A stretch of DNA of 64,000 nucleotides from Deltaproteobacteria bacterium (GCA_016182965.1 JACPFM010000006.1:9160-73159); one strand, 5' to 3'. Positions 10,663-54,044 are shown, numbered from the stretch's first letter. The notes: generated from the letters alone by a model not told the origin. A program made the numbers and translations.

Positions 10663-12097
10663 GTGCGCGCTGCTGGAATGCCTGTTGCTATGACGGCGCG
10701 CATGACCCTCGACCGCCGCCTCGCGTCCGTCCTCGCCTCGATCTCCGTCTCGATCTCCGTCTTCGTCGTCGCTCCTTCGGCGCTCGCGGCGGTGCGCTCG
10801 GTCGGACCGGGCAAGACCTACGCGACGCCGTGCGCGGCGCTCGCCGCCGCAGCCGACGGCGACGCGATCGAGATCGACGAAGATCGACGCCGGCGGCAAG
10901 AGCGCGGGCGGCAAGGCGATCTGGGTCGTGCAAGGCAACGACACCACCATCGAGGACGTCGAGCTCTCGGGCTGCAAGGTCGTCGACAAGAACGGCGCGG
11001 GCATCCGACAGGAGGGTCGGAACCTCACCGTGCGGCGGGTGTACTTCCACGACAACGAGAACGGGATCCTCACCGGCGCGAACGCCGACAGCACGATCGT
11101 CGTCGAGGACTCGGAGTTCGGGAACAACGGCGCCGGCGACGGGTACTCGCACAACATGTACATCGGCGAGATCAAGAGCTTCACGCTGCGCGGCAGCTAC
11201 AGCCACCACGCGAAGGTCGGCCACCTCGTCAAGTCGCGCGCGCTCCGCAACCACATCCTGTTCAACCGCCTGACCGACGAGAACGGCAACGCCAGCTACG
11301 AGATCGATCTGCCGCAGGGCGGCCCCTCGTGGATCATCGGCAACGTCGTGCAGCAGTCGGCCTCGACCAGCAACTCCGGCCTGGTGTCGTATGCGCGCGA
11401 GTCGAAGCGCAACCCGGAGAGCGCGCTGTGGGTGGTGAACAACACCTTCTTCAACTCGCGCGGCGCCGGCACCTTCGTCGCGGTGGCCTCCGATCTCGGC
11501 ACGCCGGTGCTCCTGCGCAACAACGTCTTCGCCGGACCGGGGACGGTCTGCGATCAGGCCTCCGCGATCAAGGACTCGAACTTCGTCGGCGATCCCGGGT
11601 TCGTGAACGCCGCCGCGTGGGACTTCCACCTGAAGAGCGGCGCGACCGCCGAGGGAAAGGGCGCCCCGCCGGGCACCGGAGGGAGCGAGCCGCTCGATCC
11701 CATTTGTCAGTACGTGCACCCGGCGCGCGCGATGACGCGCAAGACCGTCGGGACGCTCGATCAAGGCGCGTTCGAGCTGGGCGGCGAGACGACGATCCCG
11801 TGCGGCGCGACCGAGCCCGCCGACGCGGGCGGCACCGGCGACGCAGGGGTCGACGCGGCGACAGGTGACGCCGGTCTCGACGCGGGCAGCGGCGACGACA
11901 GCGGCGGCCTTCCGGGTGGAGACGCGGGGGCCGACGGCGGCGCCTCGGGCGACGCAGGGGCCGACGGCGGCGCCTCGGGCGACGCGGCGACCGATGACGG
12001 CGGCTGCAGCTGCCGCGTCGGAGACTCCGACGGCGGCGCGCGCGCCCTGCCCTTCCTCGCGCTCGTCGCCGCGCTCTGGATGCGTCGCCGTCGCTGA
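10663..12097 (+). pseudogene. Right-handed beta-helix (pectate-lyase-fold) protein with MYXO-CTERM tail, frameshifted by a 10-bp tandem duplication
   Basis: Signal peptide and 'GPGKTYATPCAALAAAADGDAIEID' are in frame 1 (from 10663). The beta-helix and the 'GCSCRVG..ALPFLALVAALWMRRRR' tail are in frame 2 (ORF 10928-12097). 'agatcgacga|agatcgacgc' at 10871-10890 is a tandem repeat; deleting one copy joins the two frames. Confidence 0.75.
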
Positions 12098-15797: not shown

Positions 15798-16259
15798 ATG
15801 AGGCTCCTCCGGATCACCTTCGCCGCGCTGTTCGTCGCCGGCACGTTCGCGGCGTGCGACGACGACCACGACAACCACCCGCCGGCCGAGAACACCGGCA
15901 GCGCCTGCACCGCGCCCGACCAGTGCTACCCGGGCCTCGACGGCGGCACGCTCAAGGGAGAGGTGGAGTGCCTGACGAAGGTGCCCGGCGGCTACTGCAC
16001 GCACCGGTGCGCCAGCGACACCGACTGCTGCGCGGTGACCGGCGAGTGCAAGAGCGGCTTCAAGCAGGTGTGCGCGCCGCTCACCAACGAGACCATCACG
16101 CGCTGCTTCCTCTCCTGCGAGGACGCCGACGTGAAGGCCGCCGACCCGGCGTACGCGAGCGACACGAACGGCTACTGCGCCAAGTACGCGAACGCCGCGT
16201 TCGGCTGCCGCTCGACCGGCGGCGGCAGCGCGAACCGCAAGGTCTGCCTGCCGAACTGA
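15798..16259 (+). CDS. Cys-rich lipoprotein, unknown function
   Basis: ATG 15798, lipobox 'GTFAAC', 14 Cys in the 153-aa precursor, high GC3. Confidence 0.7.
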   Translation: MRLLRITFAALFVAGTFAACDDDHDNHPPAENTGSACTAPDQCYPGLDGGTLKGEVECLTKVPGGYCTHRCASDTDCCAVTGECKSGFKQVCAPLTNETITRCFLSCEDADVKAADPAYASDTNGYCAKYANAAFGCRSTGGGSANRKVCLPN

Positions 16260-16262
16260 TGC

Positions 16263-16393
16263 GAGTCGTCAGTCGTCAGTCGTCAGTCGTCAGTCATGAG
16301 CCGTGAGGGCGAGGCGGTGCCGAAAGCGAGCCGCAGGCGGCGGCCCGGCCCGCTCTCGAACTGACGACTGACGACTGACGACTGACGACCCGA
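16263..16393. repeat. Inverted heptamer arrays (GTCGTCA)x4 / (CTGACGA)x4 flanking a ~60-bp GC-rich spacer
   Basis: Left arm 16263-16300 starts 4 nt after stop 16259. Right arm is 16361-16389. Lies between convergent genes. Predicted ~30-bp stem. Confidence 0.9.
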
Positions 16394-16450
16394 CCTTCGC
16401 GAGTGGCGACACGTCGCGCGCCCGAGAGACGCGACCGACCAGGAGGGCGC

Positions 16451-17317
16451 TCAGGGGCGCTTCGCCTCGATGACCCGCTGCACGTCCTCCGGCACCCGAC
16501 CGAGGAAGTCGTAGCCGGTCGCCGCCTCGACCTCGTCGATCGACACCCGATAGTCGGTCCACGGCTTCGACGTCACCGACTTGCTGTTCGGCATGATCGC
16601 CGCGATCACCTCGGTCGCGGCGGTCACGTCTTTCGCGCCCTGCCCGTGCTCGAGCACCACGATGATCTTGTAGGCGGCCTTGGGCACCGCGACGCCGTGG
16701 CCGATGGTCTTCGGGTTCGCGTCGAAGATGCCGCCGGCGATCACGTACAGCTGCTTCTGTCGGCCGATCGCGAGGTCGCGGGTGAACTCCTCCATCTCCT
16801 TCCAGCGATGGCGGTTCAGCTCCGGGCGCTGCGGCTGCATGTTCGTCATCACGAAGGTGAGCGAGTTCACCTCCGGCGAGGTCGAGCGGTCCTTCGACGG
16901 GCAGAGGTGGCCGCGATCGAAGCCGGACTTCGCGTAGTCCTTCGGCGTCACCCGGTAGAGCCCGCCGGGGAGATCCTGGTCGATGCGGAAGTCGTCCTGT
17001 CGCTCGACGTCGCCGATGTCGGCGGCGGAGAGCCGCCAGGACACCCAGTTCGGATCCTCGAGCTTCGGGTTGTACGAGAGGACGAAGGCGTCGCGATCGA
17101 GGAGGACGTCGTCGGTGTCGTCGCCGTCCTTCGGCACGCCCATCGCGGCGTGGACGCTCTTGGCGATGCCCTCGATCACCGGCGCGGCGGGCGGCGGCGG
17201 CGCGGTGACGACCGGCCCCGGCGCAGGCTCCACCCGCGCGAGGCGCGCGCCCGCGCAGCCGGCGATCGCGACGACGATCGCCGCGCCGACCAGCCGCACG
17301 CGCGAGGCCCGGGTCAT
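16451..17317 (-). CDS. Secreted DNA/RNA non-specific endonuclease (NucA/EndoG beta-beta-alpha-Me family) lipoprotein
   Basis: Lipobox 'VAIAGCAG'. Catalytic 'SGFDRGHLCPS' (DRGH). 'NMQPQRPELNR'. Confidence 0.88.
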   Translation of the reverse strand: MTRASRVRLVGAAIVVAIAGCAGARLARVEPAPGPVVTAPPPPAAPVIEGIAKSVHAAMGVPKDGDDTDDVLLDRDAFVLSYNPKLEDPNWVSWRLSAADIGDVERQDDFRIDQDLPGGLYRVTPKDYAKSGFDRGHLCPSKDRSTSPEVNSLTFVMTNMQPQRPELNRHRWKEMEEFTRDLAIGRQKQLYVIAGGIFDANPKTIGHGVAVPKAAYKIIVVLEHGQGAKDVTAATEVIAAIMPNSKSVTSKPWTDYRVSIDEVEAATGYDFLGRVPEDVQRVIEAKRP

Positions 17318-17414
17318 CGCCTCGAGGATACGCGATCGTGCCGGGTTGGGTGCTGGACCTTCGACCTACGAAGCCGAAGCGGCGAGCGTCGGCTCCGAGA
17401 AAGGCGAAGTCGAG

Positions 17415-18230
17415 TCAGAGCTCGTAGAGCATGTACGGCACCTCGCTCCCGCTCCCGAGCAGCAGCGGCATCGCCACGTTGAACACGGGGATGCCTTGCG
17501 CGGTCTGTCCGGTCAGCGAGCCCTTGTGCGCGTGGCCGTGGAACACCACGTCGACCGGCGCGCGCATGAGCGGCTCCTCGAGGCGGCTGCAGCCCAGGTA
17601 GGGGTAGATCTCCTTGCGCTCGCCCTCGCACGTGGTGTCGATCGGCGCGTAGTGCATCAGCACGACCCTCTGATCGGTCTGGAGGTGCGCGAGCGCGTGC
17701 TCGAGCTTGAGCGCCTCGTCGATCGCGGCCTGCACGAACGCCTTCACCGCGGTCTCTCCCCAGAAGCCGAGCGTCCCCCGGCCGAAGCCGCCGAGGAACC
17801 CCTTGACGCCCGCGAAGCCGACGCCGTTCACCTCGACCGCTTCCCCGTCGAGCACCTGCACGCCGGCCTCGCTCAACGTGTCCGCGACCTTCTCCGGCGT
17901 GCCCGCCTCGTGGTCGTGATTGCCGAGCACGGCCACCACCGGGATGCGCACGTGCGTCAGCTCGCGCGCCAGGAGCACGGCCTCGTCCTGTGTGCCGTGG
18001 TCCGTCAGATCCCCGCACAGGACCAGCACGTCGGCGCGTTCGTGCACGCTCCCGAAGAGCGCCTCGATGCGTCCGCTCGACCCCTTCGTGCAGTGGACAT
18101 CGGCGGTCGCAGCGATGCGGACCTTCGCGCGCTGGCTCCCGCCCTCGCCTTGTCCCCAGTTTCCCGGTCCGCCGCGGCCTGGTCCTTCGCTGATGATCGT
18201 GTCACGGACCTCGCCTTGATCGCTGCCCAT
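17415..18230 (-). CDS. Calcineurin-like metallophosphoesterase
   Basis: ATG 18230 (MGSDQGEV). 'ATADVH', 'LCGDLTDHG', 'LGNHDHE', 'FHGHAHKG'. Confidence 0.85.
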   Translation of the reverse strand: MGSDQGEVRDTIISEGPGRGGPGNWGQGEGGSQRAKVRIAATADVHCTKGSSGRIEALFGSVHERADVLVLCGDLTDHGTQDEAVLLARELTHVRIPVVAVLGNHDHEAGTPEKVADTLSEAGVQVLDGEAVEVNGVGFAGVKGFLGGFGRGTLGFWGETAVKAFVQAAIDEALKLEHALAHLQTDQRVVLMHYAPIDTTCEGERKEIYPYLGCSRLEEPLMRAPVDVVFHGHAHKGSLTGQTAQGIPVFNVAMPLLLGSGSEVPYMLYEL

Positions 18231-18355
18231 CGTCGTGCTCACCCAGCGGTCATCCGGCAAGACGCATGCCCTCGCCCGGTGCGGCGCGCGGCCCCGCCGA
18301 TGGCACGCGGGCGAATCCAGGGCGCGCGGCACGTCCTTTGCGACACGACGAGGGG

Positions 18356-19159
18356 ATGCACAGCGCTTCGATCGAGCCGCCGTTCGACGAGGAGGTCCAC
18401 GCGTTCTACCGCGATGTGCTCTCGACGCTCCGCGACGAAGGAGTGCCGTTCCTGCTCGGTGGCGGCTACGCGATGCGGCATTGGACCGGCATCGCGCGCG
18501 ACAGCAAGGACCTCGATCTGTTCCTGCGACCCGATGACTGCGCGCGAGGCCTCGAGGCGATGCGGCGGCGCGGCTATCTCACGACGACGCCCTTCCCCCA
18601 CTGGCTCGCCAAGGTCTACGACGGCGATCTCTACGTCGACGTCATCTACAACTCCGGCAACGGCCTGACGAAGGTCGACGACGGTTGGTTCGAGCACGCC
18701 GACGACGGGCGCATGCTCGGCGTTCCGGTGAAGATCTGCCCGGCCGAGGAGACGCTCTGGTCGAAGTCGTTCGTCATCGAGCGTGAGCGCTGCGACGTCG
18801 CCGACGTCGCCCACCTGCTGCGCGCGCAGGGGCCACACCTCGACTGGCACCGCCTCCTCGCTCGGTTCGAGGAGAACGGGCGCGTGCTGTTCGCGCACCT
18901 GGTCCTCTTCGGGTTCATCTACCCGAACGAGTCCGACAAGGTCCCGCGCTGGGTGCTCGACCACCTGTTCGATCAGGTGCGCGGCGGGGAGACGCGGGCC
19001 GCGGAGGGGCTCTGTCGCGGCACGCTGCTCTCGCGGGCGCAGTTCCTCATCGACATCGAGCGCTGGGGGTACAAGGACGCGCGGACCGAGCTCGGGATCA
19101 TGCGCCCCTCGCAGATCGAGATCTGGACGGCGGCCATCGCCGACTCGCGCTCGCGTTGA
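18356..19159 (+). CDS. Nucleotidyltransferase-fold protein (uncharacterised NTase family)
   Basis: ATG 18356. 'LLGGGYAMRHWTGIARDSKDLDLFL' matches the G[GS]..D.D pattern of the pol-beta NTase fold. Confidence 0.65.
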   Translation: MHSASIEPPFDEEVHAFYRDVLSTLRDEGVPFLLGGGYAMRHWTGIARDSKDLDLFLRPDDCARGLEAMRRRGYLTTTPFPHWLAKVYDGDLYVDVIYNSGNGLTKVDDGWFEHADDGRMLGVPVKICPAEETLWSKSFVIERERCDVADVAHLLRAQGPHLDWHRLLARFEENGRVLFAHLVLFGFIYPNESDKVPRWVLDHLFDQVRGGETRAAEGLCRGTLLSRAQFLIDIERWGYKDARTELGIMRPSQIEIWTAAIADSRSR

Positions 19160-19182
19160 ACGCCTGACGCGGGGGGGACGAC

Positions 19183-20994
19183 ATGATCACCGAGCCGTTC
19201 GTTCTCACGGCCGGCGCCGCGACCGTCGACCCCCTGGTCCGAGACATCGGCGTCTGCCTGCTCGCCGCCGGAGCGCTCTCGCTGCTGTGCGCGAGGCTGC
19301 GGCTGCCGACGATCGCCGCGCTGCTCCTGGCCGGCGTCGCCATCGGACCGGTCGGGCTCTCGATCGTCACCGACCAGGCGCGCATCGAGACGATCGCGCG
19401 CCTCGGCCTCGTGCTGCTCTTGTTCGTCATCGGCGTCGAGGTCGACCTGCGGATGTTCGCCCGCAGCGGCCGCGCCATCTTGATCTCGGGGCTCTTGCAG
19501 GTCCCGCTGACGGTGGCGGCGGCGTGGGGCGCCTTCCTCGGCCTCCGCGCGCTCGGCGTCCCGTTGCTCGCGGGCGGGCACGCGCCGCTCTACCTCGCGC
19601 TCGCCTGCGGGTTCTCGTCGACGCTGCTCGTGTTCCAGCTGCTCCACGCGCGCAAGCAGCTCGACGCCGGCTCGAGCCAGCTCGCCATCGCGCTCCTGGT
19701 CTTCCAGGACGCCTGGGCGATCGTCGTGCTCGCGGTGCAGCCGAACCTGCAGCGCCCCGATCTGCTGCCGATCCTCGGCACCTTCGCCGGGATCTTCCTC
19801 CTGGTCGTCGCCGCCTTCGGCGCGTCGAAGTGGGTCCTGCCGCCGCTGTTCCGGCTGGTCGCGAAGGTCCCCGAGCTGGTGGTGCTCACCGCGCTCTCCT
19901 GGTGCTTCGCGCTCGGGCTGTTCGCGACCAACCTCGATCCGCTGCTGTCGCTCGTCGGCGTGCACGCGCGGCTGTCGGTCTCGCTCGAGCTGGCGGCGCT
20001 GATCGCGGGGGCGAGCATCGGAGGGCTCCCCTACGCGCACGAGATCGTCGGCAAGGTCATCTCCCTGCGCGACTTCTTCGTGACGCTGTTCTTCGTCGCG
20101 ATCGGCATGAGCATCCCGCTCCCGCGCGCGCCCGAGGTGATCGGGCTCGCGTGCGCGCTGGCCGTCATCGCGGTGGCGCTCCGCGCGCTCGTCTTCCTCC
20201 CCGTCCTCCACCTCGCCGGCGTCGATCGGCGACGGGCGGTGATCACCGCGACCCGCCTCGCGCAGCTGTCCGAGTTCTGCCTCGTCATCCTCTACCTCGG
20301 CCGCGGCCTCGGCCACGTCGACGGCGATCTGGTCGCGGTGGTGATCCTCGCGTTCGTGCTCACCGCGCTGGCGACGCAGCCGCTGTTCGGCGTCGCCGAG
20401 CGGATCGAGCCGGCCCTCGGGCCCGTCCTCTCGAGGCTCGGCATGCCGGCGCCGAACGAGTCGCGCGACACGCCGATGGTCTGGGCGCCCACGCGCCTGC
20501 TGCTCCTCGGGTTCCACCGACTGTCCTCGGCGATCATCCACGACCTCGAGCGCAACAACCCCGACCTGCTCTCGGCGACGGCGGTCGTCGACCTCAACGT
20601 CGCGCTGCACGACGCCCTGGCGGCGACCGGTGTCCACGTGGTCTACGGCGACGTCTCGAGCCTCGAGACGCTGGAGCACGCCGGCGCCCGCGACGCCGAC
20701 GTGATCGTCTGCACGGTGCCCGACGATCTCCTCAAGGGGACCTCGAACGTCGCGCTCGCCGCGACGCTTCGCCGGATCGCGCCGCACGCGCGCATCCTGG
20801 TGAACGCGCTGACCCGGCGCGACGCCGCGGCGATGTACGCCGCCGGCGCCGACTGGGTGTTCGCGTTCCGAGTCGAGGCGGCGCGCGGCGTGATCCCCGC
20901 CATCGAAGCGTGCCTCGAGGGCGAGCTCGAGGACTTCCGCGCCACGCGCCGCGAGGAGGGCGGCGACATCGCGTACCGGGAGGAGATCCTCTGA
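19183..20994 (+). CDS. Cation:proton antiporter (CPA2/Kef type) with C-terminal TrkA-N/RCK domain
   Basis: About 12 TM helices, then 'LLLLGFHRLSSAIIHDL...VVYGDVSSLETLEHAGARDADVIVCTVPDD'. Confidence 0.85.
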   Translation: MITEPFVLTAGAATVDPLVRDIGVCLLAAGALSLLCARLRLPTIAALLLAGVAIGPVGLSIVTDQARIETIARLGLVLLLFVIGVEVDLRMFARSGRAILISGLLQVPLTVAAAWGAFLGLRALGVPLLAGGHAPLYLALACGFSSTLLVFQLLHARKQLDAGSSQLAIALLVFQDAWAIVVLAVQPNLQRPDLLPILGTFAGIFLLVVAAFGASKWVLPPLFRLVAKVPELVVLTALSWCFALGLFATNLDPLLSLVGVHARLSVSLELAALIAGASIGGLPYAHEIVGKVISLRDFFVTLFFVAIGMSIPLPRAPEVIGLACALAVIAVALRALVFLPVLHLAGVDRRRAVITATRLAQLSEFCLVILYLGRGLGHVDGDLVAVVILAFVLTALATQPLFGVAERIEPALGPVLSRLGMPAPNESRDTPMVWAPTRLLLLGFHRLSSAIIHDLERNNPDLLSATAVVDLNVALHDALAATGVHVVYGDVSSLETLEHAGARDADVIVCTVPDDLLKGTSNVALAATLRRIAPHARILVNALTRRDAAAMYAAGADWVFAFRVEAARGVIPAIEACLEGELEDFRATRREEGGDIAYREEIL

Positions 20995-20996
20995 GG

Positions 20997-21369
20997 ATCG
21001 AGTCTAGAGTCGAGAGTCCAGAGTGGCTTTGCACCAAGAACTCGCGAGGTGCCCTCTCGCCGTGGAACACCTCTAGCGGGACCTCACGCGGGCTCCTGAA
21101 ACCGGAGTGCTTCGCTGGGACCTTTGCCCTCACCCCGACCCTCTCCCAGAGGTAGAGGGAGCGAGAAATGCCCGCAGCTCTCGGCCCTCTCCCTTCGGGA
21201 GAGGGCCTGGGTGAGGGCCCTCTCTCGCGACCGCATCTCGCGTCAGAGTCCTGCGCCGTTCACTCGTCGCGCCACGACAACGGCACCCGCCCCCACCGGC
21301 CGCGGGTCTCTGTCTCTTCTCTCCACTCTAGACTCTAGACTCTAGACTCTAGACTCTGGACTCTGGACC
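20997..21369. repeat. Composite repeat: inverted GAGTCNA heptamer arrays flanking ~295 bp that holds an inverted pair of 'GCCCTCACCC..CCCTCTCCC' hairpin elements
   Basis: Left arm 20997-21027 starts 3 nt after stop 20994. Right arm 21323-21369 is '(tagactc)x4(tggactc)x2'. Inner elements are at 21126-21162 and 21183-21219 (reverse complements of each other). Confidence 0.85.
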
Positions 21370-21430
21370 GCTGCCTCCCCAGCCGATCCTGGCGTATCTC
21401 AGACCAGAGTGACGGCAGGGTTGACGCCCC

Positions 21431-22990
21431 ATGCCACGTGCGGAGACGCTTCCGTCGCCCTCCATGTCCCCAAGCCGCCTCGCCCGCGCTCGGGGGGTTC
21501 GCGGTCGCCAGCGAACGCTGGCCGTCGCCTTCGCCCTCGCCCTGATCTCCGCCGCCGGCTCCGCCGCGGCCGCCGACCCCGAGGCGACGCCGCCGGGGAC
21601 CACTCCGCCGCCCTCGGCGCCGAAGTACCCGACGCAGGCCACCGCCGCCGCGCCGGCGGGTGAGGGCTTCTCGTTCGGCTCCTACGGGCGCGTGAGCACG
21701 GCGAGCGATCTCCGTGGCGGCAGCGGCCGCGAGGCGAACATCACCGCCTTCGGCTCGCGGCTCGATCTCCCCACGTACGCCGAGATCCAGCTCGAGCGCC
21801 GCGACAGGTGGCCGAACAAGGGCGGCGTCGGCTCGGTGAGCACCAACGTGGTGTTCACGATGGCCTTCGCCGGCCCGCTCTTCCACGAGACGGGCGTCTT
21901 CGACGCGAAGACGGCGGTCCGCAACCTCTACGCCGACACCAAGGGCATCTTCCACAAGGGGTTCTCGGCGTGGATCGGCTCGCGGATGTACCGCGGCGAC
22001 GACGTCTACCTCCTGAACTTCTGGCCGCTCGACAACCTGAACATGGTCGGTGGCGGCGTGAAGCTCGCGCTCGACACGACGAGCGAGGAGGCGACCACCC
22101 TCGCCCTCGCCGTCGGCCTCGGGCGGGCGCAGGATCCGTTCTCGTTCCAGACCATCCCGTCGTCGTCACCGAGCGGCTTCGGCGCGACCCAGGTCACCTT
22201 CCTCGATCGCCCGCGGCTGGTCACCAGCCTCAAGGCGCAGCACCTCACCTTCCTCAAGCAGGGCAAGGAGGGCGAGGGCGCGAAGCCGGGGTTCAAGGTC
22301 GCCCTCTACGGCGAGCAGCACTCGATGGGCCGCGGCGTGCGCTTGAACGAGAGCAACCTCAGAGAGGAGCTCCCGTCCGAGCGCGGCACGATGATCGGCG
22401 GCCAGCTCGGGTTCTTCACCGGCGAGCGCGACGTCTTCGTCAACCTCTTCCTCCGCTACGCGACGGGCCTCGCCGCGTACGGCGACAAGACGGTGCCCTC
22501 CGCGCTCAACCTCGACAAGAGCACGAGCGGCGCGCACGAGACGCAGCTGGCGCTCTCGGCGAACTACGAGAAGGGTCCGCTCGGCGTGCTGGTCGGCGGC
22601 TACTTCCGCGCCTTCAAGGACGCGTCGGGCAACGCCTACTCGCGCAACACGTTCAACGAGGGCTCGCTCGTCGTGCGCCCGCAGGTGTGGCTCGGCGATC
22701 ACTTCGGGCTCGCGCTCGAGGGCAACTACCAGTCGCTCGCCACCGCCGCGGTGCGCGACGACGGCAGCCGCGAGCGCGCGTCGCTCTGGCGGTTCGGCGT
22801 CGTGCCGTTCCTCTCGCCGGCGGGGCGCGGCTCGTTCACCCGCCCGCACTTCCAGCTGATCTACCTCTACACCTCGCGCGACGCGGGCGCGCGCCTCCGC
22901 TACGCGCCCGACGACAAGTTCGCGCGTCGCCAGAACGAGCACTACCTCGGCTTCACGGTCGAGTGGTGGTTCAACTCCAGCTACCGGTGA
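21431..22990 (+). CDS. Outer-membrane carbohydrate porin, maltoporin (LamB)-like
   Basis: Signal peptide '..ISAAGSAAAA'. Beta-strand-rich. C-terminus 'FTRPHFQLIYLYTS...HYLGFTVEWWF' resembles the LamB 'RPELR..FATYA..EIWW' end. Directly upstream of a GH13 gene. Confidence 0.7.
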   Translation: MPRAETLPSPSMSPSRLARARGVRGRQRTLAVAFALALISAAGSAAAADPEATPPGTTPPPSAPKYPTQATAAAPAGEGFSFGSYGRVSTASDLRGGSGREANITAFGSRLDLPTYAEIQLERRDRWPNKGGVGSVSTNVVFTMAFAGPLFHETGVFDAKTAVRNLYADTKGIFHKGFSAWIGSRMYRGDDVYLLNFWPLDNLNMVGGGVKLALDTTSEEATTLALAVGLGRAQDPFSFQTIPSSSPSGFGATQVTFLDRPRLVTSLKAQHLTFLKQGKEGEGAKPGFKVALYGEQHSMGRGVRLNESNLREELPSERGTMIGGQLGFFTGERDVFVNLFLRYATGLAAYGDKTVPSALNLDKSTSGAHETQLALSANYEKGPLGVLVGGYFRAFKDASGNAYSRNTFNEGSLVVRPQVWLGDHFGLALEGNYQSLATAAVRDDGSRERASLWRFGVVPFLSPAGRGSFTRPHFQLIYLYTSRDAGARLRYAPDDKFARRQNEHYLGFTVEWWFNSSYR

Positions 22991-46473: not shown

Positions 46474-46844
46474 CTACGGACAGGCCGGCGTGACGAACGC
46501 CGTGTCGACGAGATCGTCGGCGTCACCGAGCGCGCGCAGCCGTCCTTCGGATCGAGGGAGAGGAAGGGGAGGTAGTCGGCCGCGATCCGGTCCTCGTAGC
46601 CGTCGTCGAGGCCGTCGCCATCGAGATCGACCGCCGCCTCGGCGTCCGCCGGCGTGTCGGCCGCGTCGGCCGACTCCGTGTCGGGCGGCGCCCCGTCCTC
46701 CTCGGGCGCGTCCTCGTCCGCGACGTCGCCCGCCGCGTCGGTCAACGGCGGCGGCGAAGTGGTCTCGGCGGTCGCGCCGTCGCCGCAGCCGGCGAGCGCC
46801 GCCATGAGCATCGTCAGGACCGTCATGCCCCTCGTGATCCTCAT
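46474..46844 (-). pseudogene. Acidic secreted lipoprotein, apparent 1-nt frameshift near a (CG)n run
   Basis: 'MRITRGMTVLTMLMAALAGCGDG..DLDGDGLDDGYEDRIAADYLPFLSLDPKDGCA' is in one frame. The coding-like GC3 signal then moves to the adjacent frame ('LGDADDLVDTAFVTPACP*', stop 46474). The original frame runs on, antisense, through the CBS genes. Confidence 0.4.
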
Positions 46845-46990
46845 GACCCCATGACCCTCACGACCCTCATGCCCGTCATGACCGTGACGGACGTCGGGAG
46901 CGGGGGCGACCTCACGGCCGGATCGTCGCACGGCCAGCCGTTTCGGTCATGTCCGCCTGCGCCGCCGCGTGTATGCTCCGCGCCCCGGGC

Positions 46991-48103
46991 ATGGCCAGCG
47001 TCACGATCCGCCAGATCCGCAAGACCTACCCGGGCACGGGGCTGACGATCCTCAAGGGCATCGACCTCGAGATCCCCGACGGCTCGCTCACGGTGCTGGT
47101 CGGCCCCTCGGGTTGCGGCAAGTCCACGCTCCTGCGCACGCTCGCCGGTCTCGAGCGCCCCGACTCGGGCGAGATCCGCATCGGCGACCGCGACGTCACC
47201 CGCCTCGAGCCGCGCGATCGCGACGTGGCGATGGTCTTCCAGTCCTACGCGCTCTACCCGCACCTCACGGTGCGCGAGAACCTCGCGTTCGGCCTGAAGC
47301 TCCGCGGCGCGCCGCAATCGGAGATCGACGCGCGCATCGCCGAGGTGGCGCCGCAGCTGAAGCTCGAGGCGTTCCTCGACCGCCTGCCGCGCGCGCTCTC
47401 CGGCGGGCAGCGGCAGCGCGTGGCGATGGGTCGCGCCATCGTGCGGCGTCCCTCGCTGTTCCTCTTCGACGAGCCGCTGTCGAACCTCGACGCCGCGCTG
47501 CGCGGCGAGGTCCGCGTCGAGATCCGCCGGCTGCACGACCGCCTGGGCGCGACGATGGTCTACGTCACCCACGACCAGGTCGAGGCGATGACCCTCGCCG
47601 ATCAGCTCGTCGTGCTCAACGGGGGGGTGATCGAGCAGGCCGGCCCGCCCCTCGAGGTCTACGCGCGCCCGAAGACCCGCTTCGTCGCCTCCTTCCTCGG
47701 CATGCCGCCGATGAACTTCGTCGACGCGACCCTCGAGCGGGTCGGCTCCGCGGTGCGCGCGCGCGGCAAGGGGCTCGACGTCGAGGTCGCCCGCGCGCGG
47801 CTGCCCAAGGCCGACGCCCCCTCCGAGGCGGGGCGCGCGGTGGTGGTCGGCATCCGCCCCCAGGACGTGAAGACGACCGACCGCGCGCCCGCGCCGGTCG
47901 ATCTGCGCTTCGAGCTCGTCGAGGGCCTCGGGTTCGAGTCGCACGTGCACGGCAAGCTCGGCGAAGACGGCGCGCCGTTCGTCGCGCGCCTCGAGGGCGA
48001 CGAGGGCCGACGCATCCCCAAGTGGGGCAAGCTCGCGCTCGAGGTCGCGCCGGCCGACGTGCACGTGTTCGATCGCGAAACCGGGCGGGCGCTCGCGGAG
48101 TGA
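46991..48103 (+). CDS. malK: Sugar ABC transporter ATP-binding protein (MalK/UgpC/MsmK type)
   Basis: 'GPSGCGKST', 'LSGGQRQRVAMGRA', 'LFLFDEPLSNLD', plus a C-terminal regulatory (TOBE-like) domain. The symbol rests on context (malEF, malG, amylases, porin). Confidence 0.85.
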   Translation: MASVTIRQIRKTYPGTGLTILKGIDLEIPDGSLTVLVGPSGCGKSTLLRTLAGLERPDSGEIRIGDRDVTRLEPRDRDVAMVFQSYALYPHLTVRENLAFGLKLRGAPQSEIDARIAEVAPQLKLEAFLDRLPRALSGGQRQRVAMGRAIVRRPSLFLFDEPLSNLDAALRGEVRVEIRRLHDRLGATMVYVTHDQVEAMTLADQLVVLNGGVIEQAGPPLEVYARPKTRFVASFLGMPPMNFVDATLERVGSAVRARGKGLDVEVARARLPKADAPSEAGRAVVVGIRPQDVKTTDRAPAPVDLRFELVEGLGFESHVHGKLGEDGAPFVARLEGDEGRRIPKWGKLALEVAPADVHVFDRETGRALAE

Positions 48104-48105
48104 CG

Positions 48106-50283
48106 ATGAAGCTCCGCAGCGCGCTGGCCGCCTTGCTCGCCGTGATGGGGGCCCTGCTCGTCGCGCTGGTCACGCGACGCGCCGACGCGGCGCGCACGCT
48201 GGTGGTCTGGCACGCCTACCGCGACGCCGAGGAGCGCGCGCTCGACAAGGTGCTCGCCGACTTCCGCGCCGCGCACCCCGACGCGGTCGTCGAGTCGCTC
48301 GCCATCCCCTTCGACGCCTACGCCTCCAAGCTCGAGGCGGCGATCCCCCACGGCCACGGCCCCGACGTCTTCATCGACGCGCACGAGCGCCTCGGCGACT
48401 ACCGCGCCCGCGGCCTCGTCGCGCCGATCGATCCCGCGCTCGTCGATCGCGCGGCGTTCGACGCGTCGGCGCTCGAGGCGGTGTCGCTCGACGGCAAGCC
48501 CTACGCGCTGCCCCTCGCGCTCAAGTGCCTCGCGCTCTACCTGCGCGCGCCGACCTGGCCCGAGGGGAAGAGCCCGGCGTCGCTCGACGAGCTCTTGAAC
48601 GGGCCGGGCGTGCGCCTCGCGTACGAAGCATCGGGTGCTTATACACACGCGCCGCTGCTCCACGCGTTCGGCGGGCGCATCCTCGACGACAAGGGGCGCT
48701 ACGCCTTCGCCGACGGCCCCGCGGTCGACTCGCTGACCTGGGTCGCCGCCGCCGTGTCGCGCGGGGCCATCCCCGAGGAGGCCTCCGGCGCGCTGGTCAC
48801 GCAGATGTTCTCCTCGGGCTCGCCGAGCGGCGCCGACGCGGCGATCAGCGGCCCCTGGCTCGCGGCCGATCTGCCGAAGGGCATCGCCTATCGGGTCGTT
48901 CCCATCCCACCGGTTCGTGCGGGCGGGCCGAAGCCGCGGCCGTTCCTCACCGTCGAGGGCGCGATGATCGCGCCCAAGCCGCGCGACGCGGCGCTCGCCG
49001 GCGAGATGCTGAAGTTCCTCGTGGCGACGCCATCGGCGCTGGTGCGCGCGCGCGAGGGGCGGCAGGTGGTCGCCTCGCGCGACGCCTGGACCGATCCCTC
49101 GGTGGCGAACGACCCGCTGCTGCGTGGCTTCGCCGAGGCGGCCCGCGACGCGATGCCGATGCCCACCTCGGCCGCGATGCGCGCCGCGTGGGAGCCGACC
49201 TCCCGCGCGATCCAGAAGGTCTTGCGCGGCGACGTGGCGCCGCGCGCAGCGATGGACGAGGCCGCGCACCGTTACGCCGACGTCACCCGTCCCCTCCCCC
49301 GCCCGGCCGATCCGCGCTTCCCGCTCCTCCTTCTGGGGCTCGTCGGGCTCTTCGCCGCGTTCCGGGCCGTGCGGGCGGCGCGCGATCCGGTGTTCCGCGC
49401 CGAGGCGCGCGCGTCGCTGCCCGCCTACGCCTACGTCACGCACGCGGTGATCATCGTGACTTTGCTGGTCGCCGTCCCGCTGGTGATCGGCGCCGCCACC
49501 TCGTTCTTCGCCGGGCGCGCCGGCTCGCTCTCCTACGTCGGGCTCGCCAACTACGTCGAGATCCTCACCGCGCGCGGCGGGCCGATCTTCGCTTCGGGCT
49601 CGTTCTACGCGGTCCTCGCGGTCACCATCCTGTGGACGGTGTGCAACGTGACGCTGCACCTCGCGCTCGGGGTCGCGCTCGCGCTCCTGCTCGCGCGCCC
49701 GGCGCTCAGGCTGCGCGGCGTCTACCGCGTGCTGCTCATCGTGCCCTGGGCGGTGCCGTCGTACGTCTCGGCGCTGGCCTGGAAGGGCATGTTCCACCGT
49801 CAGCTCGGCGCGGTGAACGCCATCCTGAAGGCGATCGGCGTCGAGCCGGTCGCGTGGTTCTCGAAGTTCGCCACCGCGTTCGCCGCCAACGTGGCGACCA
49901 ACGTGTGGCTCGGCTTCCCGTTCATGATGGTGGTCACGCTCGGCGCGCTGGCGGCGATCCCGCGTGAGGTGCTCGAGGCGGCGGAGGTCGACGGCGCCAC
50001 GCGCTGGCAGCGGTTCTGGCGCGTGACCTTCCCGCTGCTCCGTCCGACGCTCGCGCCGTCGGTGGTCCTCGGCGCCGTCTGGACGTTCAACATGTTCAAC
50101 GTGGTGTTCCTGGTCAGCGGCGGCGAGCCCGACGGGCGCACCGAGATCCTGGTGAGCGAGGCCTATCGCTGGGCCTTCACCCGCCAGGCGCAATACGGCT
50201 ACGCGTCGGCGTACGCGGTCCTCATCTTCCTCCTCCTCGTCGTGACCACGCGCCTCATCCGCGCGCAGAAGGAGGCCGCCTGA
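48106..50283 (+). CDS. Fused maltose/maltodextrin-type solute-binding protein (MalE-like) plus MalF-like permease
   Basis: Single uninterrupted frame. The N-terminal signal/anchor and SBP ('LVVWHAY..IPFDAY..ISGPWL') run directly into the TM helix 'FPLLLLGLVGLFAAF' and a MalF-type permease with EAA loop 'EAAEVDGATRWQRFWRVTFPLLRP'. Confidence 0.85.
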   Translation: MKLRSALAALLAVMGALLVALVTRRADAARTLVVWHAYRDAEERALDKVLADFRAAHPDAVVESLAIPFDAYASKLEAAIPHGHGPDVFIDAHERLGDYRARGLVAPIDPALVDRAAFDASALEAVSLDGKPYALPLALKCLALYLRAPTWPEGKSPASLDELLNGPGVRLAYEASGAYTHAPLLHAFGGRILDDKGRYAFADGPAVDSLTWVAAAVSRGAIPEEASGALVTQMFSSGSPSGADAAISGPWLAADLPKGIAYRVVPIPPVRAGGPKPRPFLTVEGAMIAPKPRDAALAGEMLKFLVATPSALVRAREGRQVVASRDAWTDPSVANDPLLRGFAEAARDAMPMPTSAAMRAAWEPTSRAIQKVLRGDVAPRAAMDEAAHRYADVTRPLPRPADPRFPLLLLGLVGLFAAFRAVRAARDPVFRAEARASLPAYAYVTHAVIIVTLLVAVPLVIGAATSFFAGRAGSLSYVGLANYVEILTARGGPIFASGSFYAVLAVTILWTVCNVTLHLALGVALALLLARPALRLRGVYRVLLIVPWAVPSYVSALAWKGMFHRQLGAVNAILKAIGVEPVAWFSKFATAFAANVATNVWLGFPFMMVVTLGALAAIPREVLEAAEVDGATRWQRFWRVTFPLLRPTLAPSVVLGAVWTFNMFNVVFLVSGGEPDGRTEILVSEAYRWAFTRQAQYGYASAYAVLIFLLLVVTTRLIRAQKEAA

Positions 50284-51170
50284 TGGCCAAGGCCTCCAAG
50301 AACCAGACGATGGACGAGACCGGCGGACGCCGCAGCCTCCTCGGCGAGGCGCTGGTCCACCTCGCGCTCGTCGTGGCGACGGCGGCGGCGCTCTACCCGG
50401 TGCTGTGGGTCATGTCGCTCGCGTTCTCGAGCTCGCAGGCGCCGAGCGCGCGCGTGCTGCCGTGGCCCGAGGCGCCCTCGCTCGATCAGTTCCGCGCCGT
50501 CGTCGGCACGCACGACGCCGCCGGTCGCTGGCTGTTCGGGCGGCAGCTCTTCAACTCGCTTTCGGTGTCGATCGCCACCGCGGTGGTCGGCGTCGGCATC
50601 GCCACGCCGGCCGCCTACGCGCTCGCGCGCTTCCGCTTCCTCGGCAAGGAGCGCGGCGTGTGGCTGCTCATGGCCACGCAGATGTTCCCCGGCGTCGCCA
50701 CGCTGGTGCCGCTCTACCTCATCTTGCAGGGCCTGCACCTGCTCGACTCGCGCGCGGGGCTCGTCCTGGTCTACGCGACGACCTCGGTGCCCTTCTGCGT
50801 CATGCAGCTGCGCTCGTCGTTCGAGGCCATCCCCGTCGACCTCGAGGAGGCGGCGATGGTCGACGGCGCCAGCCGCTTCCAGGCCTTCCGCATGGTGGCG
50901 CTGCCGGCGGCGCGCCCGGCGATCGCCGTGACCGCGCTCTTCGCGTTCATGGGCGCGTGGAACGAGTTCATCCTCGCCGCCACGCTGATGTCGCGCGCCG
51001 AGTCGTTCACCCTGCCGGTGGCCCTGCAGCGCTACGTCGGCGAGCACGGCGCCGCGTGGGGCCACTTCGCGGCCGGCGCGCTGATCGTGTCCATCCCGGT
51101 GATGGCGATCTTCTACCTGGCGCAGCGCCATATCGTGAGCGGGCTGACGTCGGGCGGCGTGAAGGGCTGA
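50283..51170 (+). CDS. malG: Sugar ABC transporter permease (MalG-like)
   Basis: ATG overlaps the previous stop. EAA loop 'EEAAMVDGASRFQAFRMVALPAARPA'. Six TM helices. Confidence 0.85.
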   Translation: MAKASKNQTMDETGGRRSLLGEALVHLALVVATAAALYPVLWVMSLAFSSSQAPSARVLPWPEAPSLDQFRAVVGTHDAAGRWLFGRQLFNSLSVSIATAVVGVGIATPAAYALARFRFLGKERGVWLLMATQMFPGVATLVPLYLILQGLHLLDSRAGLVLVYATTSVPFCVMQLRSSFEAIPVDLEEAAMVDGASRFQAFRMVALPAARPAIAVTALFAFMGAWNEFILAATLMSRAESFTLPVALQRYVGEHGAAWGHFAAGALIVSIPVMAIFYLAQRHIVSGLTSGGVKG

Positions 51171-51172
51171 CG

Positions 51173-51210
51173 GAGTCGTCAGTCGTCAGTCGTCAGTCGT
51201 CAGTCGAGAC
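51173..51210. repeat. Orphan heptamer array (GTCGTCA)x4, no inverted partner
   Basis: Starts 3 nt after stop 51170. Positions 51173-51204 are identical to 16263-16294 (32/32). Confidence 0.9.
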
Positions 51211-51314: not shown

Positions 51315-52238
51315 ATGGCTCGAAAACGCGGGGGTGGTACGCTCCGAGCGATGTCGAACGCGCGCACTTCGACGCCCGGCTGGCGCCTCGATCCCGCGGA
51401 CCCGCGCGCGCCTTCGCGCGAGGTATGGGCCGCGCTCTCGCCCGAAGCGCGCGCCGTGGTGGTCGACGCGCTCCCGTCCGAGCTCGACCCGTCGCTCGGC
51501 GTCGCGCCCCCCGAGGGCGACGAGCACTTCGATGCGTCCGTCAACCCACGGCACGCGCTGCGCCGTTGGTTCGGCAAACTCGGTCGGCGCGCTTACGTCG
51601 GGACGAACCTCGCCGTCTACTACCCTGCCGAGAAGGTCTTCGCGCCCGACCTGATCGTCGTGCTCGACGTCGACCCGGGCCCGCGGATGCGCTGGGTCGT
51701 CGAGGCCGAAGGGAAGGGCCTCGATTTCGTGCTCGAGGTGCATGTCGCCGGGGATTGGCGCAAGGACTTCGTCGACAACGTCGAGCGCTACGCGAAGCTC
51801 GCGATACACGAGTACTTCGTCTTCGACGTTTCGCGGGGCGCGCTCGTCGGACATCGCCTCGACGACACGCGGTGTCGCTACGCGCCCATCGCGCCCGGCC
51901 CCGACGGCTTCCGATCCGAGGTGCTGCAGCTCGACTTGCTGGTCAACGACGCGCGCGTTCGCTTCTTCCACGCGGGCGCTCGGGTCCCGGAGCTCGACGA
52001 GCTGGTCGAGCGGCTCGAGGGCGCCATGGCGGAGGCGATGGCGCACGTCGCGAAGCTCCAGGCCGAGCTGAAGGACACCGCAGACGCCCTCGAAGCGGCG
52101 AAGGCGGCCGAGCGCGCCGAGCGCGAGGCGAGGGAGGCCGAGCGCGAAGCGAGGGAGGCCGAACGCGAGGCGAAGGAAGCCGCCGAGGCCGAGCTCGCGC
52201 GTGTCCGGCGCGAGCTCGACGAGCTGCGGCGACGCTGA
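51315..52238 (+). CDS. Uma2-family (DUF820) putative endonuclease with C-terminal coiled coil
   Basis: 'APDLIVVLD', 'GLDFVLEVHV', 'YAKLAIHEYFVFD' (PD-(D/E)xK-like Uma2 pattern). The tail has 3 x 21-bp repeats (52119-52181) encoding the EREAREA heptad coiled-coil. Alternative start ATG 51351. Confidence 0.75.
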   Translation: MARKRGGGTLRAMSNARTSTPGWRLDPADPRAPSREVWAALSPEARAVVVDALPSELDPSLGVAPPEGDEHFDASVNPRHALRRWFGKLGRRAYVGTNLAVYYPAEKVFAPDLIVVLDVDPGPRMRWVVEAEGKGLDFVLEVHVAGDWRKDFVDNVERYAKLAIHEYFVFDVSRGALVGHRLDDTRCRYAPIAPGPDGFRSEVLQLDLLVNDARVRFFHAGARVPELDELVERLEGAMAEAMAHVAKLQAELKDTADALEAAKAAERAEREAREAEREAREAEREAKEAAEAELARVRRELDELRRR

Positions 52239-52672: not shown

Positions 52673-53839
52673 ATGAGGACGAGCTCGTCGATTGCGCTGT
52701 TCACCGTGCTCGGGTTCACCTCGTGTGCGCCACGCGACGACGCCGGCGGCCGGCAGAACGCTACCGTGCTCGCTGCGGACTGCTACTCGGTCACGCAGAT
52801 CGACAACCGCAAGTTCGGCGGCGGTGTCGCTCCGCCACACGACATCGACGAGCGCGGAAGGCTGCTGTTCGATCGGTTCATCTGGGACCACGGAGAGCGA
52901 ACCCCGCTGCGGGCGCCGGAGGGCTGGGTCGCGGCCGGCGCGGTCGACTTCAACGAGCGCGGTGACGTCGTCGGCACAGTGCTTCGCGAGCTCGGTGCCG
53001 GTGCTCGGCGCCCCATCGTGTGGTGGCACGACGGCACCGTGGCCCTGTTGCCGGAGGTCGCGAGTCTGAACGAGGTCCTCGAAATCACCGAGCGCGGTCA
53101 CGTGCTCGCGCGCACGTACGACGGCCGCGCGTGGGATGTCGTTCTCTATCGCGACGGCGCCTGGATCGATTTGGGCCGGGGTATCGCCTACGACGTCAAC
53201 GACGACGACGAGGTCGTCCTCGTCGACGATCGCCGCGCGGTCTTGTGGAAGGACGGCGCGCGGATCGATCTCGGGCTCGACGGCGCCTTGACCATGAAGC
53301 TCAACGACCATGGCCAGGTGATCGCCAACGCCGAGCGCGCCGGCCCCGGGACGGAGGCGGCGTTCCTGTGGGAGACCGGGGTCGCGCGGATGCTCCCCGC
53401 GCTTCCATCGCTTGGGGACGCGCAGCAGTGGAGCGCGACCGCCATCAACGAGCGGGGCGACGTCGCCGGTTTGGTGATTCCGTCCAGCACCAGCACGTAC
53501 TTCTCGTATGCAGTGCTATGGCGCGGTGGCGCTCCGACCGTCCTCGCGGACTGGAGCGCGGGCGTGCTCGACCTCAACGACGCCGGTCAGGTGTTCGGCA
53601 ATGCCAGGCGGGGCGACGTGTTGAGACCATTCGTTTGGGATCGCGGAACGTACGTCGAGCTGCCGATGCCGTTCGTCGCACGCTCCGCCACCGGCTACGC
53701 GGACGGTCGCAAGTCGATCAACGAACGCGGCGACGTCTTCTTCAACATGAAGCCGGTCGACGGGATCAGCCACACGTTGCTGTGGAGGAATGACCTCTGC
53801 GGCCGTCCCGAGCCGGAGCCGGAGGAGCCCGGGGAGTGA
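52673..53839 (+). CDS. Lipoprotein with HAF-like extracellular repeats (beta-propeller-like)
   Basis: ATG 52673, lipobox 'LGFTSCA'. About 7 repeats of the pattern 'A..(I/F)NERGDV(V/A)G ... (V/F)(L/W)W..G....L'. Confidence 0.75.
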   Translation: MRTSSSIALFTVLGFTSCAPRDDAGGRQNATVLAADCYSVTQIDNRKFGGGVAPPHDIDERGRLLFDRFIWDHGERTPLRAPEGWVAAGAVDFNERGDVVGTVLRELGAGARRPIVWWHDGTVALLPEVASLNEVLEITERGHVLARTYDGRAWDVVLYRDGAWIDLGRGIAYDVNDDDEVVLVDDRRAVLWKDGARIDLGLDGALTMKLNDHGQVIANAERAGPGTEAAFLWETGVARMLPALPSLGDAQQWSATAINERGDVAGLVIPSSTSTYFSYAVLWRGGAPTVLADWSAGVLDLNDAGQVFGNARRGDVLRPFVWDRGTYVELPMPFVARSATGYADGRKSINERGDVFFNMKPVDGISHTLLWRNDLCGRPEPEPEEPGE

Positions 53840-54044
53840 TCAGCGGAGCTCGTCGAACCAAACGGCGAGGGAACCCCCGTGGAAATGGCTCTCGATTCGA
53901 CCTTCGACCTTCGACCTCGGAACCGCAGACCGGTTCGTGTTCGTGGTCGCGTGCGGTTCCGTCGTCGCCGCCTGCAAGAAGGCAAAGCTCACCGCCACGG
54001 GCCCGCAGCCGGAGCTCGCGCCAATGGTCGAGGACAAGTGAGCG

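Follow-up and report, generated by a model that had tools for sequence, protein, structure and literature searches.

The perfect 7-nt arrays in the window, by which we mean the whole 64,000-nt stretch of DNA analysed, are heptanucleotide long SSRs (LSSRs) built on an AGTC core and probably driven by slippage, and this is the best explanation we can give for them. They belong to the class of heptamer arrays described in Xanthomonas (GGGAATC), Nostoc and Calothrix (GGGGAYT) and Beggiatoaceae (TAACTGA), they turn over rapidly between relatives and they obey rules of orientation relative to genes and to one another. The class itself is already known; new here are the AGTCGTC unit, its host and a spread over at least 14 phyla with the same orientation rule. 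The endonuclease flanking the main arrays has 100% identity to a protein of an NCBI MAG that carries the label Deltaproteobacteria bacterium, and its closest named relatives come from Polyangiaceae/Polyangiales MAGs. The host is therefore a Polyangia-like member of the Myxococcota, and the window has a G+C content of 71%. In the following, F denotes the strand reading (AGTCGTC)n and R its complement, and the arrays are arranged with their neighboring stop codons as listed.

16257-16259, plus strand: TGA stop of the upstream gene, 4 nt before the left array; the 3' end of this gene aligns with the orthologue in the relative L110.
16264-16295, plus strand: left (F) arm of the main pair, perfect (AGTCGTC)x4.6 (TRF, 100% matches).
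16296-16359, no strand: spacer or loop of the main pair, 64 nt, GC-rich, unrelated to the 20-nt spacer of the orthologous pair.
16360-16389, minus strand: right (R) arm of the main pair, perfect (ACTGACG)x4.3 as read on the plus strand, equal to (AGTCGTC)n on the minus strand (TRF).
16451-16453, minus strand: stop codon of the convergent gene for a DNA/RNA non-specific endonuclease (16451-17317), 61 nt from the right arm.
20992-20994, plus strand: TGA stop of the Na/H exchanger gene, 5 nt from the first perfect unit of the second pair.
20993-21024, plus strand: F arm of the second pair, a degenerate GAGGATC over the TGA followed by GAGTCTA, GAGTCGA, GAGTCCA and GAGT (TRF).
21325-21368, minus strand: R arm of the second pair, read as (ACTCTAG)x6.3 along the plus strand and as GAGTCTA units along the minus strand (TRF).
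51168-51170, plus strand: TGA stop of an ABC-transporter permease (gene at 50283-51170), separated from the orphan array by 3 nt.
51174-51206, plus strand: orphan F array, perfect (AGTCGTC)x4.7, with no inverted partner (TRF).
53896-53917, plus strand: fifth perfect heptamer array, of a different unit, (TTCGACC)x3.1, intergenic and 56 nt after a stop at 53839.

The main pair (16263-16393) is placed between two convergent genes, the plus-strand gene ending at 16259, whose 3' end is conserved in one relative (L110), and the minus-strand endonuclease gene. An earlier note on this DNA had described inverted heptamer arms around a GC-rich spacer between convergent genes, and this description holds, with (AGTCGTC)x4.6 and (ACTGACG)x4.3 separated by 64 nt and able to form a 33-bp stem. 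A repeat finder delimits the arms at 33 nt with 97% complementarity and 65 nt between them. An independent Logan assembly of the same genome (L001) reproduces the right arm in part, matching the flank and the array and breaking inside the array. Each arm is composed of tandem heptads and not of palindromic REP units. The two strands of the unit differ in coding potential, as (AGTCGTC)n has no stop codon in any frame of its own strand and the complementary (ACTGACG)n carries TGA in all three. The claim that a 7-nt period cannot be coding is therefore right for the complement and wrong for (AGTCGTC)n itself.

Taken with the G before it, the left arm (16263-16295, 33 nt) has an exact copy at 51173-51205, bearing out the recurrence reported about 35 kb away. 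This orphan copy lies between the gene for the final permease in a sugar ABC-transporter operon and a Uma2-family gene. The related GAGTCNA pair is likewise real and inverted, with 21000-21024 pairing with 21325-21368 across a spacer of about 300 nt, and its R arm ends 62 nt upstream of the start (21431) of a LamB-type porin. The genes upstream of the second pair and of the orphan are identified by Pfam as a Na/H exchanger and an ABC permease. The strict proximity to stop codons that had been noticed is seen in the main pair, the orphan and the second pair, which begin 4, 3 and 5 nt past a TGA, and it generalises to about 100 unrelated genomes. The fifth array (53896-53917) lies 127 nt before the stop of a minus-strand TPR gene; a TTCGACC array is also present in the Thermomicrobiales MAG L079 (4254-4277), and similar units are arrayed in L002 and L006. 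Perfect period-7 arrays of three or more units number five in the window and zero in 60 second-order Markov simulations; at periods 5, 6 and 8-11 the window has none of this length.

Several known repeat types can be set aside from the form of the arrays. A CRISPR array, with 23-50-nt repeats set apart by unique spacers of like size, is excluded, since the units measure only 7 nt and adjoin one another directly. The G-quadruplex subclass of heptamers (Rehm 2015) is excluded since AGTCGTC, GAGTCNA and TTCGACC all lack any G-tract. Resemblances to integron attC sites and to SARP heptad operators were dropped as neither has any defining feature here.

Folded as RNA, the main pair is predicted to form a stem of about 33 bp on both strands, with energies of -97 and -133 kcal/mol and z scores of about -8, and the second pair is predicted to close a domain of 370 nt (z = -7.1). 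The surroundings of the orphan are predicted to be no more structured than shuffled sequence (z = 0.25). Neither arm of the main pair, whose loop is 64 nt, is followed by a T run, and a scan of 15800-21800 for consensus terminators or promoters gives 0 sites. A canonical intrinsic (Rho-independent) terminator is rejected on these three grounds, the missing T/U tract, the loop and the empty scan. A search of the whole window with Rfam 15 gives no match at the gathering score and one chance-level hit (E = 0.21) in 15800-21800, and no tRNA or tmRNA genes were found in the window. A strong GC-rich hairpin at 21123-21218 (gccctcacccc...ggggtgagggc, with inner ctctccc/gggagag stems) lies inside the spacer of the second pair, and its Rfam match, to Pab91 (E = 0.21), is at chance level only.

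Short over-represented intergenic motifs that follow stop codons, often as inverted stem-loop pairs in 3' UTRs, are familiar from REP/BIME (REPIN) and from inverted DNA-uptake sequences. These are single imperfect palindromes or fixed motifs of 10-35 nt with a genome-specific consensus, and REPs come with a RAYT transposase. The arrays described here differ in being tandem 7-nt repeats with a variable number of units. A selected RNA 3'-end element of comparable type, in which the F...R stem is kept for bidirectional termination or for protection against 3' exonucleases as in REP/BIME and Neisseria uptake sequences, is a possible reading that we nevertheless hold to be unlikely. It would account for a predicted stem that is very stable on both strands, that begins 4 nt past a stop between convergent genes and that has a counterpart F...R pair in the orthologous intergenic region of a relative, and it is consistent with the unrelated long inverted repeats that two distant relatives (L121, L123) carry after the orthologous permease stop. 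Convergent contexts are also mildly enriched: among the matches listed, they make up 14 of the 75 cases in which both neighbors of the array could be called. In Xanthomonas, the starts or ends of transcripts fall at such repeats more often than at control repeats (PMC4692102), and this enrichment points the same way. The lack of a T-tract, the long loop and the empty terminator scan speak against such an element, as do the roughly three quarters of arrays that are partnerless among the matches listed, the unstructured orphan in the window and arm variants in L110 that are not compensatory. The same pairs moreover occur inside operons against a ribosome-binding site (L079), start codons are adjoined about as often as stops, and a stem by itself cannot explain why pairs occur only in the order F then R.

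On the slippage reading the stem is probably not maintained as a conserved structure. The RNA of the pair would form the stem of about 33 bp in the 3' UTRs of both convergent transcripts, where it could incidentally hinder 3' exonucleases or RNA polymerase or aid termination. The arrays themselves would be born and resized by replication slippage in dispensable DNA at gene boundaries, and the second arm may be an inverted copy of the first, made for example by intramolecular template switching or quasipalindrome correction. Inverted copying of an arm would yield two perfect arms of near-equal length without selection. The orphan at 51174 would be a recently born solo array.

Comparison with relatives shows how quickly the arrays change. 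In L110/L111, in which the endonuclease is 87% identical, an F...R pair is present in the same convergent intergenic region, placed 4 nt after the stop of the endonuclease, whereas in the window it adjoins the stop of the other gene; in both cases the pair lies 4 nt after a CTGA stop. The L110/L111 arms consist of AGTCGTCx2 plus AGTCATCx2 facing CTGACGAx2 plus CTGATGAx1, and the comparison of unit number, which the earlier note had proposed for strains, gives between these relatives 4 and 3 units there against 4.6 and 4.3 in the window. The positions of the L110 variant units are not compensatory in the stem. The spacer in L110/L111 is 20 nt and unrelated to the 64 nt of the window, and the flanks cannot be aligned. 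Inversion of the whole intergenic region was considered for the shifted L110 pair and rejected, as the similarity is weak only (z at most 3.5). A metagenome scan for orthologues of the flanking endonuclease gave 223 pattern matches, of which 0 were confirmed.

The orthologous permease stop is not followed by the orphan array in L120-L127, which span 98-82% protein identity and include the L110/L111 relative (98% protein identity) and five more distant ones. The gene content downstream of the permease (51315-52238), where the window has a Uma2-family putative endonuclease, differs in all relatives examined (L120-L127), so that the orphan lies at a synteny breakpoint. At the same permease gene end, L121 (2383-2600; 88% protein identity) and L123 (2377-2600; 87%) have long inverted repeats formed by short CCAAGG-type motifs (e.g. 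CACCAAGGATCCAAGGAGGCACCAAGGAG ... its complement) and not by heptamer arrays. Since these stand at the site of the orphan, different lineages place different repeat-built hairpins at one and the same gene end. A second copy of the window spacers was found neither in the window nor in any fetched locus. The shifted and resized L110 pair, the absence of the orphan from relatives and the single-copy spacers show that the arrays are young, lineage-specific and fast-changing and that they lack a conserved interior of the MITE type. Among the three readings first offered for the arrays, slippage-prone microsatellites are best supported by these comparisons, as number, variants, position and presence of the units all differ between close relatives.

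The second of those readings, an insertion-site-specific MITE, fails on the same material, the spacers being unrelated between copies and between orthologous loci, with no other copy found and no target-site duplications visible. The arms do have the form of terminal inverted repeats (33 nt, 97% complementary), and neither a conserved multi-copy interior nor target-site duplications accompany them, the spacers being unique and the flanks free of duplication. In a broader form, a mobile element of MITE or REPIN type would have the heptamer arrays as its terminal inverted repeats and a preference for gene ends, and the orphans would be one-ended remnants. Such an element would explain the fixed orientation of the arms (22:0 among the matches listed, see below), the preferred phase of the outer end, with 11 of 21 stop-adjacent arrays starting exactly with AGTCGTC among the matches listed, the presence or absence of arrays between relatives and the move of a pair within one intergenic region of a close relative, 4 nt after CTGA each time. 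The majority of Xanthomonas arrays are paired (PMC4692102), and the identical unit occurs in many phyla, as would also be expected of a mobile element. The interiors are nevertheless unrelated even between orthologous loci, at 64, 20, 45, 58 and about 300 nt, and no second copy of any is found; there are no visible target-site duplications and no linked transposase; the outer phase varies, the arms differ in unit number and variants, and the arrays grade into blocks of variant units as is typical of microsatellite evolution. We regard a mobile origin as improbable.

The distribution of the unit was determined by scanning the exact 21-mer (AGTCGTC)3 over a collection holding one genome per species. 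It is present in at least 108 genome stretches, where about 0.3 would be expected by chance, and the hosts belong to at least 14 phyla among the matches listed. The bacterial hosts listed are from the Acidobacteriota, Chloroflexota, Bacteroidota, Cyanobacteria, Actinomycetota, Planctomycetota, Verrucomicrobiota, Myxococcota, Pseudomonadota, Gemmatimonadota, Desulfobacterota, Omnitrophota, Patescibacteria and Bacillota, and one further host is an archaeon. An identical array in at least 14 phyla implies a cause that is general and not lineage-specific. Lengths among the matches listed are 3.x units in 56, 4.x in 43 and 5.x in 9, with a sharp fall past about 4.7 units, and the AGTCGTC arrays of the window have 4.6, 4.3 and 4.7 units (TRF). 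In viral contigs, used as a unit control, (AGTCGTC)3 has 4 matches and permuted units have 5 and 0, so that one composition-matched permutation equals the frequency of AGTCGTC; these counts are too small to rate the unit as special.

Many of the matched loci hold additional period-7 arrays. The units beside the query array are mostly one substitution away from it and expanded to a block (ACTGACC, ACTGATG, ACTGACT and others), and single-substitution units expanded into blocks are a signature of microsatellite evolution. Long composite tracts of ATCAGTT, ATCAGTC, TCAGTCG and TCAGTCA blocks are present in an Anammoxibacter MAG (L016, 5050-5197), in Desulfococcaceae HSG8 (L051, both ends) and in a Verrucomicrobiota MAG (L064, 2246-2403), and these tracts record stepwise mutation of the unit followed by expansion.

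The placement of the arrays relative to genes, which were called in the fetched loci by a rough gene caller, is strongly polar. Among the matches listed, a gene boundary is found 15 nt or less from the 5' end of F in 31 of 91 cases and from its 3' end in 5 of 87 (Fisher p = 1.6e-6). For 21 of the 45 arrays with a 5' neighbor in the sense orientation among the matches listed, the distance between its stop codon and the array is -2 to +13 nt, and some stops share bases with the first unit (T-AG-TC, TG-A-GTC). When the 5' neighbor is antisense, the array reads (ACTGACG)n on the strand of the gene and reaches the Shine-Dalgarno sequence and start codon. R arrays stop 0-20 nt before an SD-ATG in many genomes (L014, L067, L079, L058, L052), and arrays adjoin start codons roughly as often as stops among the matches listed.

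The same polarity is seen in the order of the arms. Adjacent perfect arrays of opposite orientation are arranged F then R in 13 cases and R then F in 0 among the matches listed. With degenerate partners included (complements with at least 16 of 21 matches, searched up to 250 nt downstream of F), 22 of 97 arrays among the matches listed have a partner downstream and 0 of 97 have one upstream. About a quarter of the arrays are thus paired and the remainder are orphans, as is the array at 51174, again among the matches listed. Both window pairs and the orphan conform to the orientation rules found across genomes. An independent set of viral contigs with other AGTCNNN units gives 8 pairs in the order F then R and 1 in the order R then F; the 5' anchoring in this noisier set is not significant (20/73 vs 15/76), and many of the viral AGTCNNN arrays lie in ORFs or are chance matches. 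Three-frame stops were considered as the general cause of the polarity and rejected, as TTCGACC and many AGTCNNN units contain no stop whichever way they are read, and GAGTCTA contains stops both ways.

Some loci have exactly the architecture seen in the window, one of them in L079. In this MAG a TAG stop shares bases with the first unit of (AGTCGTC)x4, an unrelated spacer of 45 nt separates this F arm from (CTGACGA)x4, and 19 nt past the R arm, behind an AGGAG, the next ABC-transporter cistron starts with ATG; a Tepidisphaeraceae MAG (L065) has an arrangement of this type on the minus strand. A further alternative is a device at the boundary of translation, in which an F arm covered by the terminating ribosome and an A/C-rich R arm at the Shine-Dalgarno sequence form a hairpin that couples or insulates cistrons, and in which the AGTCGTC R arm would add three-frame stops just before the ribosome-binding site. 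The stop-to-array distance of -2 to +13 nt is within reach of a terminating ribosome, the R arrays 0-20 nt before SD-ATG recur in many genomes, the stop-F-spacer-R-SD-ATG order stands between two ABC-transporter cistrons in L079, and (ACTGACG)n has TGA in every frame. A translational role has also been proposed for TAACTGA (MacGregor 2015, PMC4679880). The main pair does not fit such a device, lying between convergent genes with no nearby start codon, and the orphan likewise falls outside it; in the second pair, 62 nt separate the R arm from the start of the porin gene, three-frame stops are lacking in other AGTC-core units, and stop-adjacent solo arrays are left unexplained. The likelihood of a translational device is slight.

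The contiguous heptads could alternatively serve as a platform bound by one protein per unit, on DNA or RNA, and the number of about four units would then reflect how large the complex is. Examples of such proteins would be those with a cold-shock domain, binding single strands, and ribbon-helix-helix proteins on heptad operators. The sharp preference for about four units among the matches listed, in a unit without G-quadruplex potential, is in keeping with this, as are mixed arrays that keep the AGTC core and vary at three positions, although the set was itself selected on a constant AGTC. CspB binds heptamer repeats with one protein per unit, as cited in PMC4679880, and a Nostoc preprint, which ascribes modest effects on regulation to other heptamer arrays close to start codons, inferred a heptamer-binding partner (bioRxiv 10.1101/2022.06.06.494920). 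Many unrelated units form arrays in the same genomes, however, and rapid gain and loss speaks against dedicated regulatory sites, so that a binding platform seems very improbable. Each of the four alternatives, 3'-end element, mobile element, translational device and binding platform, agrees with some of the data and conflicts with others.

The favored slippage reading has limits of its own. Slippage alone fails to predict the F then R order, the anchoring of the AGTC end on a gene and the ceiling of about 4.7 units, and it fails to account for a pair placed 4 nt from a different stop in two relatives. As the strict orientation and the sharp drop after about 4.7 units lie outside simple slippage, an additional constraint or mechanism must exist. 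G-quadruplexes cannot explain these features of AGTCGTC because the unit is without G-tracts. A more far-reaching proposal, which we think distinctly doubtful, is that AGTC-core arrays are a cross-phylum family of self-building polar hairpins, with the AGTC arm 5' and the outer end on a stop or ribosome-binding site, made or maintained by a dedicated mechanism. This could be a palindrome builder driven by an enzyme or by template switching, or a universal factor that reads 7-nt registers. If such machinery existed, the arrays would mark and control the boundary between translated and untranslated RNA, and the size of about four units and the 22:0 orientation among the matches listed would be its signatures.

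Heptanucleotides are the most abundant class of long SSR in many prokaryotes, and polymerase slippage has been put forward as their origin (Mrazek 2007, as reported in PMC4679880 and PMC4692102). Period 7 predominates in the LSSR survey (Mrazek, Guo and Shah 2007) and among cyanobacterial STRR heptamers, the class to which the GGGGAYT heptamers of Nostoc and Calothrix belong, and in the window it is the sole such period; orientation and pairing rules as found here do not figure in what is reported of those surveys. Mrazek and Huang (2014) mention neither Myxococcota nor heptamers. A literature search for the exact AGTCGTC array returned incidental primer matches only.

The closest described system is that of the GGGAATC arrays in two Xanthomonas species and the GGGGA(C/T)T arrays in Nostoc (Rehm 2015, PLoS One 10:e0144275, PMC4692102). 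These are 89-93% intergenic, with a mean distance of 28 nt to the 5' ORF compared with 160 nt to the 3' ORF whatever the ORF orientation, often overlap a stop codon, prefer four units, form 70-75 convergent pairs per genome and vary extensively between species; the majority are transcribed and no function was found (PMC4692102). The arrays described here share the 7-nt period, the intergenic location, the size of about four units, the position near the 5'-side ORF or stop, the convergent inverted pairs and the interspecies variation. They differ in that AGTCGTC and GAGTCNA lack G-tracts, making a G-quadruplex impossible, and in their host, a Myxococcota MAG, and the identical unit in at least 14 phyla contrasts with the lineage-enriched view of that paper.

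TAACTGA arrays stand directly before start codons in Beggiatoaceae, cyanobacteria and Bacteroidetes (MacGregor 2015, PMC4679880). With 2-6 units, they resemble the present arrays in being mostly intergenic, fixed in orientation to genes and patchy across phyla. In both systems the strand carrying ACTGA reads toward start codons and finishes just short of them, here in the R orientation of L014, L067 and L079, and in both it has stops in all three frames. The TAACTGA study describes almost only direct arrays (with one inverted case) in mostly start-proximal positions, whereas the window arrays are stop-proximal and include an inverted pair.

Heptamers have been flagged as the dominant long microsatellites of bacteria since 2007, and their placement at gene ends was described in 2015. 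The preference for four units in a unit that cannot form a G-quadruplex undercuts the sole published rationale for that number, and the near-absolute orientation (22/97 downstream and 0/97 upstream among the matches listed) could make the old question experimentally tractable. For annotation, heptamer arrays explain contig breaks in k-mer assemblies and should not be labelled as MITEs, terminators or CRISPR-like repeats.

The window also contains tandem repeats of other periods. A 9-nt-period repeat, TCATGACCC x7.9, occupies 46814-46883, where a lipoprotein-like gene on the minus strand and the gene for a MalK-like ABC ATPase on the plus strand (46949-48103) diverge. Read along the minus strand, the repeat would specify a stretch rich in His and Gly ahead of a lipoprotein signal peptide, and it could be an operator array or an N-terminal extension. 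Three tandem repeats of longer period are found at 1442-1621 (63-66 nt x2.8), 11921-12002 (30 nt x2.7) and 52116-52182 (21 nt x3.2), and these are probably coding repeats because their periods are multiples of three. In the sugar ABC transporter (about 48100-50283) the solute-binding protein is apparently fused to a permease (SBP_bac_1/8 plus BPD_transp_1) in one product of 706-756 aa, and the same call is obtained in several Polyangia relatives (L121/L123/L125).
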